Origin: Eledone cirrhosa | Lineage: Eukaryota | NCBI GenBank assembly: GCA_964016885.1 | Contig: OZ024743.1 | Coordinates: 215,016,001 to 215,080,000, forward strand | Length of the DNA: 64,000 nucleotides | Direction of reading: 5' to 3' | Shown: piece by piece, positions 20,564 to 47,990 of the stretch | Layout: each line of letters begins with the position of its first letter | How positions within the stretch are numbered: the first letter of the stretch is position 1 | Position numbers and translations under genes: made by a program | Notes under the pieces: model-generated | Seen by the model: only the letters and a program-made list of their open reading frames with translations | Database searches by the model: none | Told to the model about the DNA's origin: nothing

Positions 20564-20775
20564 TGGGAAAAGTCTCAGGACCCCCAAGGCCGAGCTGCGG
20601 CCGTTTGACAGCTAAATCCGAACAAACCCGGCAGTATTACTGGGTCATTTCGGATCTGGCTGTCGAAACGGCTGGAGCTCAGCCTTCGGGGTCCTGACAA
20701 TTTTCCTATTACACAATCTACTAACCTAAGTATCGAGTACTCTGGTGCGTTATGGTCTACCTGGTTCATCACCAC
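20564..20775 (+). mobile_element. Fold-back family F, copy A (3' half of the HHR only)
   Basis: Inverted repeat at 20564-20709, then the tail ..CTAAGTATCGAGTACTCTGGTGCGTTATGGTCTACCTGGTTC shared with the copies at 28578, 33331 and 47795. Confidence 0.75.
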
Positions 20776-21432
20776 ACACACACACACTCACACACACACA
20801 CACACACACACACACACACACACACACACACACACACACACACACACACACACACACACACATATATATATATATATATATATATATATATATATACATA
20901 TACGTGGCTTGATTTCTTGTCAGACTTCAACGACCTGCGCATGTATTTTTTTGGCGGTAGCCTCCTTACTCCCATTTTCAGGACAGTGTAAGATTTTCTT
21001 TAGAACTGCTGGACTAACAACCTAGAGTCCCCTGAAGCACTGATGGTGATTATCGCTAAATATTGATGTTGATTTGATTATCAATATTAATATTATTGGG
21101 TACCCACTGAATATTTATAAGAGACCACTTGAATAAGTATCTGTTGATTTTATACAAGCTTCTACATAACTTTGTATAAATTCACCCAAATTCTAGAAAT
21201 CTTATAATGAAACAAGTCGTCTGGAAAATGATATATTTGATATATCTCATATGAAATAATACAGCCAATTATCCACACAATACAATATAGTTAGCACCCC
21301 AAACGTTTAATTGGGAATGTACTCAGGTATTTCCTAATGTTTGTTGAGTGAGTTGGAATTTGATCAGTGTATCGCTTTTAGCTTTCTCCGATTATGTATT
21401 TATATATATATATATATATATATATATATATA

Positions 21433-22480
21433 TACATACAATAAAGTATGTCCATAGAATCATTTGATAAAATATATACACCATTTCCTCTCCCAATCAG
21501 CATAATCAACCGCACAAAAAACCAGTTAAACCAGGCTATAATGTATTTTAATCTTATAGCCTGGTTTAATTGTATTTTTGTGTGGTTGATTATGCTGATT
21601 GGGAGAGGAAATGGTGTATACATTTTATCAAATGATTGTCTGAACATACTTTATTGTATATTGCTATGATTGTTGATTATTTAATTAATTAATTCGTAAT
21701 TGAGCCACATCGTGAATGGTTGCCAAAAACATATATATATATGGCTTTCTCTAGTTTGTGTATATGTAAATATTTATATTTGATAATCCCCCATATGGTT
21801 GAGATGCAATTTAGGCAATATTAGGCTGCGCTTTCTAGCAACCAGCCCACTCGCTGTAAGGCACCAATCACATTCTTTCTGACTTGACCACTGCCACGTC
21901 ACAGTTCTTAGCCATTTGAATTCGTTTCTGGCGGGGATCATTTAAGAAAAATATTAGTCCAAGTCATTTTGTTTTTTGATGATTTCGAAGCTTGTGAATT
22001 TATCCTTGATCGGATATTTCCAAAAGCGAATGAAACCCCAAGGGGTAGACACGTAATTATTGTATGTTTATATACATTTTCTTCTAACTTTGATTTTATG
22101 CCTAATTGTGTATGGTTGACGATATATTTAATCGATTCCAACGTGCTATTGGAAATGTGGGTAAATATTCTATGGCTGTTGATCGCGAATAGATAGCTGT
22201 CATTTATTCATCTATTATTTCTTCATAGGTGTCTTTTAATCATATAGTATGTTTTAATTGTTTTTTTGTGTGGTTGATTATGCTGATAGGGAGATGAAAT
22301 GGTGTATATATGTTATCAAATGATTCTATGGACATACTTTATTGCATATTGCTCTGATTGTTAATTATTTAATTAATTAATTCGTCTTTGAGCCACATCG
22401 TTGATGGTTGCCAAAAACTTATATATATATATATATATATATATGACTTTCTCTAGTTTGTGTATATGTAAATCTTTATA
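21433..22480. mobile_element. Non-autonomous element: inverted arm + direct repeat 1 + internal region + direct repeat 2
   Basis: 21433-21540 is inverted to 21553-21660, and about 21565-21778 is repeated directly at about 22253-22480. (AT)n lies on both flanks. Confidence 0.7.
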
Positions 22481-23687
22481 TATATATATATATATGTGAA
22501 ATATATGAAATATATGAAATACAAGAATCAAAGAACTGTTCAAAACATTTTTATGCTCATAACTGTTTCCTCCAAACCGAGGTTTGGTTTCTTCGGAGCA
22601 ATTTATTATTGAATGAACACTTATATTACCTCCTTTTCACCCAAGAGACATACAGATACATATGCAAATATTGTGGGTCAACATTCATTACAGCATTTAG
22701 AGTGGCAGTACACACTTAGAGATTACTTTCATATTAAAATATACAATCAAAAATACAGGTTAAAATACAACATGCAAATAAGCGGTTATATAGTGCAAGT
22801 GTTATATGTGTGGCAAGCACGTGCGTCTTGTTTATATAGTGTGGCAGAGAGTTACGTGTAGTAGAAGCACTTAAGTAGGTAAACAAGAGTGTTAGGTTGG
22901 TTGATCTGGTGGAACATTTTTTATATGATTGTTATAGTCTGTGTATGAAGAAATAATATAAGCATTAAGAATAGTGCAAGCATTAAAAATATTAAAAATA
23001 TTGGAAATGCACAGCGAAGGGATGATATGGACTTCATGTACTTCGACATTTTCATAGTCTGGGAAGTTTATTTTTCAGATTATATGCCCCTCACATAATC
23101 CACGACAATTCGATATTGAGCGTTTGACAATCCAGTTAGAGAATCGTAGTCTGATGTTCTTTAGTTTAATACAGGAGGATGTTACGTTTCGAGAATCGAC
23201 ATTGAAATACTACTCAAAATTGTGTGTGTGGCTAAGGGGAGTTAATGCATGAAGTACATGAAGTCCATATCATCCCTTCGCTGTGCATTTCCATTAATAG
23301 TTTTAATGCTTGCACTATTTTTAATGCTTATATTATTTCTCCATACACAGACTATAACAATCATAAAAAGAATTTGCTACCAGATCAACCAACCGAACAC
23401 TCTTGTTTACCTACTTAAGTGCTTCTACTACACGTAACTCTCTGCCACACTATATAAACAAGACGCACGTGCTTGCCACACATATAACACTTGCACTATA
23501 TAACCGCCTATTTTCATGTTGTATTTTAACCTGTATTTTGATTGTATCTTTTAATATGAATGTAATCTCTAAGTGTGTACTGCCACTCTAAATGCTGTAA
23601 TGAATGTTGACCCACAATATTTGCATATGTATCTGTATGTCTCTTGTGTGAAAAGGAGGTTATATAAGTGTTCATTCAATAATAAAT

Positions 23688-23734
23688 TGCTCCGAAGAAA
23701 CCAAACCTCGGTTTGGAGGAAACTGTTGTAAGCA
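23688..23734 (+). ncRNA. Hammerhead-like motif in the 5' pLTR (variant core CCGAAGA)
   Basis: TGCT-CCGAAGA-AACCAAACCTCGGTTTGGAG-GAAA-CTGTTG-TA-AGCA. An inverted copy lies at about 22555-22601, and the 3' pLTR copy (about 27895-27930) has lost the GAAA segment. Confidence 0.6.
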
Positions 23735-23974
23735 TAAACATGTTTTGAACAGTTCTTTGATTCTTATATTTCATATACCTGCTCTGTAAATACTCTGATG
23801 TTTTTACATTGAGCTACTTAACTTACTGGTAATAAGGTAGTAGTATATTACTGCCTACCACTATTTAGGGTTTGTATAAACATATATATAACTGCAAATA
23901 GTATAATTAATAAATAGTATAATTAATACTATTAACTGCTCCATATTGTTGAGTTGACATATAATATTACCAAT

Positions 23975-46335: not shown

Positions 46336-46852
46336 AGGAGTGTTGTTGTAGCCAGAAGTTGATACGGCTGTGATTGGCCCTTCGTATAAGCTATAAGCGA
46401 GTGGCATTTGGTTTATTGCATTTAGAAGTGGTTTAGTGTGTGAGTGTGTGTGTGGGAGAGAGAGGGAGATAATGGGAAACAGTGAGAGAGGAATAGAGAG
46501 AGAGAGATAACACAACAATAAATTTGAATTCGGGTGATTTAGAGTTTGTGATGGTCAGAATAATGAGGATGATGACGTTGTATGTGATGATTATATTGAT
46601 AAATATGACGATGATCATGATGAAATACAATGATGATGACAATGATGTTGACGAGGGGGAGGGGGCAGGAGGAGAAAGATGGTGAGAATGTATGCATATG
46701 ATGATGTGAATGATGATAATGAAAATGATAATGATCGTGATGATAAATAGATTAGGCACAAACAAAACCGACAACAGCATAAAACAATTTAAGTTGTCAT
46801 CAAATAGTTTATGCCACGAAATATTACTAAACGTTCTGTAGAACACGCAAAA

Positions 46853-47075
46853 CTACTACTACTACTAATGCTGCTGCTGCTGCTACTACCACCGCCACCA
46901 CCACCGCCGCCGCCACCACCACTACTACTGCTGCTGCTACTTCTACTACCACCACCACCACCATCACTACTACTACTACTACTACTACTACTACTAATAC
47001 TACTACTACTACTACTACTACTACTACTACTACTAATACTACTACTACTACTACTACTACTACTACTACTACTAC
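46853..47075. repeat. (CTA)n/(CCA)n/(CTG)n trinucleotide array
   Basis: Direct inspection; it explains the poly-Leu/Pro/Val ORFs. Confidence 0.95.
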
Positions 47076-47651
47076 ACGAAACATTGGGCAGATCCAGTTC
47101 AAAAACGATGATTATCCTTTATTTCGAAAGTCATGTTATTGTTCACAATAACGTTTATCTGAAGGATAGACAGTTACTCGGACGTACTACAAAGATGTTT
47201 TGGAACGTCTTCGATAAGCGAGTCCAAAAGTACATTGCACTACTTTCAATTAGAGAATATCTGTCGAAGGGAAATATTCCCAATCTTTGACACCCTCCGA
47301 AAAACACAGATCTAGCTCCATTTGATTTATACTACTTCCCTCAGTTGAAATGGAAATGGAAGGGTCATTATTTTGTGACTGTGGAAAACATACACAAATT
47401 TGTAATCAACAAGTTGAGGACACTCACAAAATATTACTACAGGTACCACTACGATCAATGGAAATAAACGTTGGAATCACTGTGTGAATTGCTAAAGTCG
47501 TATTTTCGATCGGATCGTGTATCATTATGTATAGCTCATATATATTTAAATAAAATATCAATGCTCTTGCTTTTGCCACAGATCTCATATATATATATAT
47601 TTTACAATTCCAACCAGCCCATCCCCTCAATCTATCTTATTTCTCATTCTT

Positions 47652-47687
47652 TCTTCTGATGAAGGACTAGCGTCCGAAACGTTAAGA
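47652..47687 (+). ncRNA. Minimal type I hammerhead motif in a 170-bp insert between (AT)n tracts
   Basis: TCTT-CTGATGA-A-GGACTAGCGTCC-GAAA-CG-TT-AAGA, with an AACGTT palindrome at stem III. Confidence 0.7.
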
Positions 47688-47794
47688 CCCTCTTCCTGCT
47701 ATATCAAGCGTTAAACTAATCTATCAATTCCATATACTGTACCGATTGCGTTGTTATTTCTGTTTAACTTTTATATATATATATATATATGGAT

Positions 47795-47990
47795 ATAACG
47801 AGGGAATTGTGGTAAGGAATCAGGTGGACCATAACGCCCCAGAGTACTCAATACTTAGGGTAGTAGTTTGGTGATAGAAAAAGGTATGAACCCGACGGCA
47901 GAGCTCAAGCCGTTTCGAAGGCTATTTCAGTACTGAAATAGCCGTCGAAACTGCTTGAGCTCTGCCGTCGGGGTCATACCTGTTCCTATA
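47795..47990 (-). mobile_element. Fold-back family F, copy D
   Basis: Inverted repeat at about 47874-47989 plus the shared tail at 47795-47873. Confidence 0.8.

Follow-up and report, generated by a model that had tools for sequence, protein, structure and literature searches.

Four fold-back copies of one repeat family (A to D; Table 1) lie in a stretch of 64,000 nucleotides of contig OZ024743.1 (positions 215,016,001 to 215,080,000; called the window below), and the question they raise is how one arm of each copy comes to stop at nearly the same place, against a TA microsatellite, while the other arm runs on through a tail. A to D are very probably truncated insertion products of an endonuclease-bearing Penelope-like element (PLE), and we think it likely that they are the heavily 5'-truncated products of one high-copy, (TA)n-targeting PLE family in which both target strands are primed, each at its own site on the RNA. 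A to D form a new family, while the architecture and the idea of two start sites have already been published.

The four fold-back copies and their fixed ends

A sequence-only reading of the window had described four fold-back copies sharing an inverted-arm endpoint, and all four were found where it had placed them. The tail sequence was detected at just these four places in a sensitive scan of the window, and an inverted, 5'-truncated copy adjoins the long arm head to head in 4/4 copies. The tail is on one end only, with both of its boundaries recurring in public reads. The short arms end in TTCC-TAT (B and D), TGCC-TAT (C), and TCCC-AT (A), each running into (AT)n, so that (TA)n adjoins all four. 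The distance from the GTC cleavage triplet of a hammerhead motif to the short-arm end is 17 nt in B, C, and D and ~20-22 nt in A, and the stop described earlier, about 18-20 nt past the cleavage site and joining (AT)n, thus holds in 4/4 copies at a measured 17-22 nt; the rough chance of four ends falling within 4 nt of a ~100-nt range is 3e-4. The long arms end ..CGTTA/TA in B, C, and D, and extend past the short-arm TAT by 79 nt in C and D and by 66 nt in A, whose end at CCAC in (CA)n falls 12-13 nt short. In B, a 17-nt deletion near 29501-29507, between two CCCACTC words, lies exactly over the short-arm endpoint. A common main-arm endpoint is therefore borne out in C, D, and (minus these 17 nt) B, but not in A. 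The short arms measure ~53-455 nt, close to the ~55-445 bp given earlier, but are less varied than that range implied, with 3/4 pivots clustered near loop II of the ribozyme; the pivots of A, C, and D lie within it, leaving these copies just its 3' half, and the 5' core is kept in B only.

A to D represent different subfamilies, and their long arms are ~83-89% identical over aligned bases. Within B, 429 of 443 aligned nucleotides are identical between the arms (14 sites differ), and the short arm is most similar to the long arm of its own copy in A, B, and D; C is the exception. Palindromic pivots were discounted as evidence because the centre of any fold-back is palindromic. The flanks show no relationship (24 pairwise comparisons scored 17-27, with a median of 22 for the background), and the pivots differ in all four copies, as do the orientations; judging from the unshared flanks and the different pivots, A to D are separate insertions, as had been proposed. 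That they stem from a segmental duplication, whose shared flanks the sequence-only reading had named as the contrary outcome, or from assembly artefacts at (TA)n has practically nothing left to recommend it: while all four copies do lie in microsatellites, and another family is locally duplicated at 21542-21774 and 22230-22476, the flank scores are at background, the two arms of B differ at 14/443 sites, and the identical junction is present in raw reads of two other samples, so that the flank scores and read junctions refute it. Copy A has on both sides a 15-nt CA run, a T interruption, further CA, and then (TA)n (right side ~20773-20895), possibly a long target duplication of ~110 nt, and the word TATATGGA..TATA on both sides of copy D is a possible target duplication of ~14 nt.

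The recurrence of the endpoint was followed in four of seven listed public runs, whose sequences were aligned to the long arm of B at 80% likeness: whole-genome contigs of organism A, possibly the sample of the window itself (X1; 9,747 records aligned), contigs of organism B (X4; 42), and restriction-site-associated DNA (RAD) reads from two other samples of organism A (X5, 20,899; X6, 21,275). The figures are those of the rows listed, namely 24/597 loose-end rows, 15/21 joints, and 40/122 substitutions. Loose ends ..TTCCTATATATA.. at 29501 and 29507 were found in 70+47 of the 9,747 contigs of X1 (117), 2,104+1,019 of the 20,899 reads of X5 (~3,100), and 1,971+767 of the 21,275 reads of X6 (~2,700). 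Tail-bearing records that cross the short-arm endpoint account for 136 (X1), 4,544 (X5), and 4,695 (X6) loose ends, and 17-nt insertions at the endpoint (821+825 and 991+948) also mark tail-bearing reads; tail ends ..GTTATATA.. number 73, 818, and 858, respectively. The letters before the endpoint vary and thereby mark more than one subfamily. Fold-backs that are very short and have the identical end start at 41 and 38 read positions. Joints between opposite strands are present in the reads, including, among those listed, asymmetric ones from 29455-58 to 29500-07, and depth falls steeply upstream, as for 5' truncation. Two contigs of organism B end in GTTCCTAT, where the arm types are indistinguishable. 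The fixed short-arm end is common in the genome, and the family is abundant, with, by rough inference, thousands of copies; the short-arm endpoint described earlier recurs widely in the records of the four runs, as far as the 24/597 rows listed show its ends.

Summed contig depth rises five-fold at 29439-29476, and three of the four copies pivot nearby. This may reflect a stalling point at helix II of the ribozyme or mere divergence of subfamilies in loop II; since loop II varies between subfamilies, the depth step near 29458 was not counted as demonstrating a hot spot for pivots. Some X6 reads (29592 to 29501) have (TA)n joined directly to the tail start, and these are possibly solo tails with no inverted arm. 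Piles of RAD read starts were rejected as biology, since AATT words of B account for 4/7 and one of the listed variants accounts for a fifth, with two of the seven left without an AATT explanation; MluCI is presumably the enzyme used for RAD at AATT sites. Exact-pattern scans gave 0 matches in metagenome contigs, viral contigs, and prokaryote genomes.

The putative ribozyme and the class of the family

Copy B carries a type I hammerhead motif with a U3-A8 core and putative self-cleavage activity, judging from its sequence. It consists of helix I ACCCC/GGGGT (5 bp), helix II of 1+6+3 bp, helix III of 6 bp, G10.1-C11.1, and GTC at the cleavage site, around the core TTGAGAA instead of CTGANGA, with U and A at positions 3 and 8 in place of C and G. 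With the 3' half held fixed, a matching 5' half was obtained in 7/5,000 shuffles of the upstream sequence (29/5,000 with a 400-nt window), and the B hammerhead was one of three matches in a relaxed scan of both strands of the whole window. No core substitution is among the 40/122 substitutions listed; the core is TTGACAA in one contig of organism B, where the free position 7 is the sole difference, and position 29498 is T in B and G in most reads. Rfam at gathering score gave 0 matches in the window, and a strict CTGANGA scan of it found one motif, unrelated to the B ribozyme.

The U3-A8 variant has been published for PLEs of Schistosoma, with ~1,300 matches (PMC4209133). The hammerheads of the Cercyon PLE of Schistosoma mansoni resemble that of B in U3-A8 for C3-G8, a 4-5-bp helix I, a long helix II, G10.1-C11.1, a palindromic loop 3, and opposite-strand pairs 100-700 bp apart (PMC4209133). 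The motif of B differs in its 6-bp helix III stem and in a helix II that carries an internal loop as well as a loop of ~32 nt; the sequence CGGCT/AGCCG, common to its helices II and III, permits a swapped inactive fold, and the host is probably a cephalopod. Such a strand-swapped fold of the U3-A8 ribozyme could keep the template uncut. Because both arms of A to D span the cleavage site, the template was RNA that was uncut or religated. Among the window's other fold-backs, the position of the short-arm end relative to the ribozyme varies with the family: it may precede the ribozyme, fall within it, or follow it by ~45-135 nt. Ribozyme cleavage therefore does not set this end.

The inverted truncated copy, the one-sided tail, the hammerhead motif, and the (TA)n target are all present, in keeping with the PLE origin put forward before. 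Inverted truncated copies, a tail of 30-40 bp on one side only, and insertion into (TA)n have been described for PLEs (PMC8557442), and the insertion unit of endonuclease-bearing PLEs is like A to D in strong 5' truncation, the head-to-head inverted 5'-truncated copy, the tail at one end, a hammerhead in the pseudo-long terminal repeat (pLTR), and microsatellite targets that hide target duplications (PMC8557442, PMC3846280). Differences are the tail, 30-40 nt there (PMC8557442) vs ~79-80 nt in A to D, and the open reading frame (ORF) and direct pLTR tandem of these elements, neither of which is seen for the truncated A to D copies. PLEs of the Hydra clade combine (TA)n insertion with hammerheads, as A to D do, but their ribozymes are described as canonical, unlike the U3-A8 type (PMC8557442); A to D are not assignable to a clade. 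No coding sequence had been noted in the copies, and a tblastn search with 42 Hydra-type proteins gave no match at E<1 in B, C, and D and one weak match (E 0.48) in A; no direct pLTR tandem was found within A to D. The Hydra fragment at 33214-32600 was rejected as the ORF of copy C itself, as the 3' region of the fragment holds no A to D family sequence. The tail was also rejected as an ORF start: a 45-aa open frame of C, searched against 1.84 billion proteins, gave two unrelated matches driven by many weak repeats, and the ATG frame spans 12 codons. The fold of the tail is unremarkable (z 0.79 and 0.03).

The other class considered earlier, retrozyme-like, would make A to D a non-autonomous non-LTR retrozyme family spreading as circular RNA with a borrowed PLE enzyme. 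Non-LTR retrozymes share with A to D the non-coding nature, the type I hammerhead, and high copy number in an animal genome (PMC7229834), and they derive from pLTRs (10.64898/2026.07.22.740005); the palindromic loop III and the lack of a visible ORF fit as well, and a ligated circle would likewise yield cDNA across the cleavage site. However, retrozymes are tandems of 150-450-bp monomers, while A to D are head-to-head, truncated, and mostly provided with half a ribozyme (PMC7229834). No head-to-tail monomers of 150-450 bp occur in the window or among the 15/21 joints listed, the ~350 nt upstream of the B core hold no second ribozyme, among the 24/597 rows listed, the tail is followed at the top loose ends by (TA)n and not by a next unit, and the steep fall of depth upstream is the pattern of 5' truncation. 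We regard a retrozyme origin as quite improbable, and this part of the earlier proposal is not supported. Longer copies with an ORF for reverse transcriptase (RT) and GIY-YIG endonuclease, or tandems, had been suggested as a check; no tandem was seen, and no ORF was linked to the family.

A proposed mechanism with two start sites

In the mechanism that we favor, the endonuclease of the element would cut both strands of a (TA)n repeat, as does that of Poseidon of Anolis carolinensis (PAc) in vitro; the reverse transcriptase would extend one target end from the far end of the tail (..CGTTA), and the other target end would be extended from a site ~80 nt upstream (..TTCCTAT), by analogy with the two start sites of PAc. 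Both cDNAs would halt early and be joined head to head, which gives the observed fold-back with the tail on one arm. The template RNA would not be cleaved at this ribozyme, as both arms span the cleavage site in the DNA product, and the exact register of the starts would probably be set by pairing of 2-5 nt between the nicked repeat and a TA word of the RNA, as the junction words faintly suggest. The purified PAc enzyme cuts and extends both strands with uncleaved RNA as template, and starts at two RNA sites that bound the tail (PMC11167929). PAc is thus like A to D in the two defined ends that bound the tail and in the AT-rich target, and the likeness extends to strand extension and uncleaved template insofar as the DNA structure of A to D reflects these steps; its start sites are AC-rich, within an ORF, and non-homologous to the target, whereas A to D end on target-matching TA words, with no evident ORF start and a larger spacing (PMC11167929). 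Extension of both strands from two defined RNA positions, as the sequence-only reading had supposed, is the best explanation of A to D, but it is not new, having been shown in vitro for PAc (PMC11167929).

What separates this mechanism from a single priming event is the content of the short arms. In E1, a near full-length Hydra-clade PLE next to B, the short arm reaches 208 nt upstream of the adjoining direct arm, and in E2, a 5'-truncated Hydra-clade PLE, the entire short arm is sequence absent from it. Short arms of this kind, in E1, in E2, and at the read joints from 29455-58 to 29500-07, imply two separately templated cDNAs, and two-site priming is favored over self-priming on this account. 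If a PLE primed only once, the first cDNA would fold back, self-prime, and copy itself, with the short-arm end fixed by an endonuclease cut at the TAT of the element or by a halt at a protein-bound tail, and then joined to (TA)n. The near-symmetric arms in A to D and in three other fold-backs favor such a course, self-priming has been proposed for junction palindromes in rotifer Penelopes (PMC3846280), endonuclease-mediated resolution has been suggested for the PLE tail (PMC8557442), and a TA-cutting enzyme would leave TA at the junction too. Self-priming cannot, however, yield short arms further upstream than the adjoining arm, and the in vitro products of PAc start at two RNA sites, with both strands extended (PMC11167929); we consider self-priming unlikely.

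L1-type twin priming produces non-overlapping inverted and direct segments from one RNA, with a poly(A) end. Applied here, an inverted upstream segment would abut a non-overlapping 3' segment of a single RNA, and several of the read joints listed have the direct arm starting at 29500-29532 and the inverted arm at 29455-29471, which would fit non-overlapping segments at some loci. The arms of A to D, by contrast, overlap almost entirely (4/4), an outcome that a single pass over one RNA cannot produce; poly(A) is absent, and the deletion in B blurs the joint positions by up to 40 nt. Twin priming is very improbable for A to D.

Returning to two-site priming, the microhomology at its start sites was compared over six families. 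The TA-phase word common to the short- and long-arm ends is TAT in A to D, 5 nt in E1/E2, 3 nt in the fold-back at 21436, and 4 nt in that at 33718; it is 2 nt only in the fold-back at 20038, and none is present at the short-arm junction of that at 43676. A shared word of at least 3 nt is thus found in 4/6 families (P ~7e-4 under random junctions). The TA microhomology invoked earlier is therefore suggestive, but it is not separable from endonuclease cutting at TA in the element DNA. The early stop of the long arm of A is consistent with priming at a nick ending in CA, together with a long duplication of the target, though later rearrangement may also account for it. We offer, as a tentative proposal that is rather more doubtful than the two start sites themselves, that PLEs with microsatellite targets have both start sites set, in a telomerase-like manner, by pairing of 2-5 nt between the nicked repeat and a matching word of the RNA. 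If this is true, its footprint would be the fixed TAT end, the TA words in four families, and the shift of copy A to a CACA word in (CA)n. A literature search over titles and abstract openings, mostly of papers outside subscription and outside Repbase, gave no pairing claim for PLE start sites and no report of this cephalopod family.

Several points weigh against the above account. All seven fold-backs (7/7) of a centre scan are near-symmetric, including those with 450- and 250-nt arms, and near-symmetric arms are poorly explained by two independent truncations; such a scan does select for symmetry. As for pairing, the junctions of two families offer no match of 3 nt, two of the four positive families have a non-TA base after the shared word, the test was post hoc and small (six families), and PAc primes without homology to the target (PMC11167929). 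The endpoint evidence comes from 24/597 loose-end rows and 15/21 joints, RAD counts contain duplicates and are biased toward loci near AATT sites, and two consensus rows mix arm types (agreement 0.67-0.91). For the ribozyme, the computed hammerhead fold is -21.0 kcal/mol vs -24.0 for the strand-swapped fold, and the fold z-scores (0.14 and -0.56) are unremarkable. Finally, A to D are known from truncated copies, with clade and autonomous partner unproven: tblastn on the copies and the tail-frame search among 1.84 billion proteins linked no RT/GIY-YIG ORF to the family.

Other repeats of the window and significance of the family

Other families of the window are built like A to D, among them E1 and E2. 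The ORFs of E1 and E2 carry RWR, DKT, and CxCx5C motifs, which match them to the Hydra clade (PMC8557442), and the best named relative of the E1 RT among 42 matches is a protein of Argonauta hians (47%), which makes an octopod host likely. E1 has a hammerhead-like core CCGAAGA (position 4 C) in all three of its repeats, and the core of E2 is CCTAAGA. Neither E1 nor E2 nor the Hydra fragment next to C has any sequence in common with A to D. There are four further fold-backs, at 20038, 21436, 33718, and 43676, and tails range from ~53 to 150 nt across the fold-back families of the window. The 131-nt spacer (20087-20217) of the first matches 16769-16899 at 93% and may have been captured from this nearby DNA by templated copying. 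The motif at 33821 has a similar counterpart near 32317 (minus strand), within the 3' region of the Hydra fragment that adjoins C. A dispersed SINE-like (short interspersed element) repeat of ~190 nt, with copies 75-93% alike, interrupts the inverted arm of E2 with one of them; ARAGORN predicted 0 genes, and no tRNA was found in this repeat. A ~1.2-kb direct duplication (50046-53228) lies upstream of the first of two degraded LINE-type (long interspersed element) elements.

Table 1. Features of the window, in window positions; a slash marks the end of an arm
Feature	Position	Strand	Description
Copy A	20564-20775	+	whole fold-back, long arm on +
Copy A left (CA)n(TA)n tract	20459-20563	+	
Copy A short (inverted) arm	20564-20631	-	end TTTTCCC/AT within (AT)n
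Copy A pivot	20632-20642		
Copy A long arm	20643-20775	+	ribozyme 3' half and 66-nt tail, end CCAC in (CA)n
Copy B	28578-29579	+	whole fold-back, long arm on +
Copy B short arm	28578-29032	-	~455 nt, complete U3-A8 type I hammerhead motif, end GTTCCTAT/ATAT
Copy B short-arm hammerhead	core 28682-28676	-	putative cleavage between 28597 and 28596
Copy B pivot	29033-29064		32 nt, includes 19-nt near-duplication of arm start
Copy B long arm	29065-29579	+	tail end CCGTTA/TA
Copy B long-arm hammerhead	29405-29500	+	complete; whole ribozyme motif kept in both arms
Stem I 5', core, G10.1	29405-09, 29410-16, 29417	+	core TTGAGAA
Stem II, GAAA	29420-28 with 29461-70, 29473-76	+	
Stem III		+	palindromic loop, putative cleavage after 29495
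Copy C	33331-33520	-	whole fold-back, long arm on -
Copy C long arm	33331-33462	-	ribozyme 3' half and 79-nt tail, end TTCGTTA/TA
Copy C short arm	33468-33520	+	end GTGCCTAT/ATAT
Copy D	47795-47990	-	whole fold-back, long arm on -
Copy D long arm	47795-47928	-	ribozyme 3' half and 79-nt tail
Copy D short arm	47935-47989	+	end GTTCCTAT/ATAT
E1	22511-28133	+	near full-length Hydra-clade PLE: inverted pLTR, pLTR, broken (frameshifted) RT/endonuclease ORF, ~1.5-kb 3' region, pLTR
E2	40323-43580	+	5'-truncated Hydra-clade PLE, broken RT/endonuclease ORF; inverted arm end at same TATA as E1
Fold-back	20038-20370		short-arm end within loop 3 of a minimal hammerhead-like motif (CTGAGGA near 20228)
Fold-back	21436-21729		~68-nt tail; long arm and flank duplicated ~690 nt downstream at 22230-22476 (85%)
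Fold-back	33718-33900		short arm ends before canonical CTGATGA hammerhead-like motif at 33821
Fold-back	43676-44250		~250-nt arms, hammerhead motif CTGAAGA at 44079, ~53-nt tail
Hydra-clade ORF fragment	33330-32045	-	5'-truncated, with 3' region; abuts copy C tail, different family
Solo pLTR-like fragment	47590-47775	+	immediately left of D and flanked by (AT)n runs; canonical CTGATGA..GAAAC near 47657
SINE-like repeat copies	1-188, 2796-2994, 16063-16258, 19593-19735, 28120-28184, 30806-30996, 31847-32044, 40409-40605		
Degraded LINE-type element	53575-56761	+	apurinic/apyrimidinic endonuclease (APE) and RT-like frames (Pfam Exo_endo_phos, zf-RVT)
Degraded LINE-type element	60559-63797	-	APE and RT-like frames (Pfam Exo_endo_phos, zf-RVT)

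The family matters in two respects. Scans based on CUGANGA, and Rfam, miss an abundant family of U3-A8 hammerheads. The inverted, tailed insertions of PLEs and their preference for microsatellites are listed as open questions (PMC8557442), and a family with thousands of copies and a ~80-nt gap between its two ends, together with several other families in the same genome, makes up a natural data set that suits the testing of two-site priming against fold-back synthesis, and of primer-template pairing as the selector of start sites.

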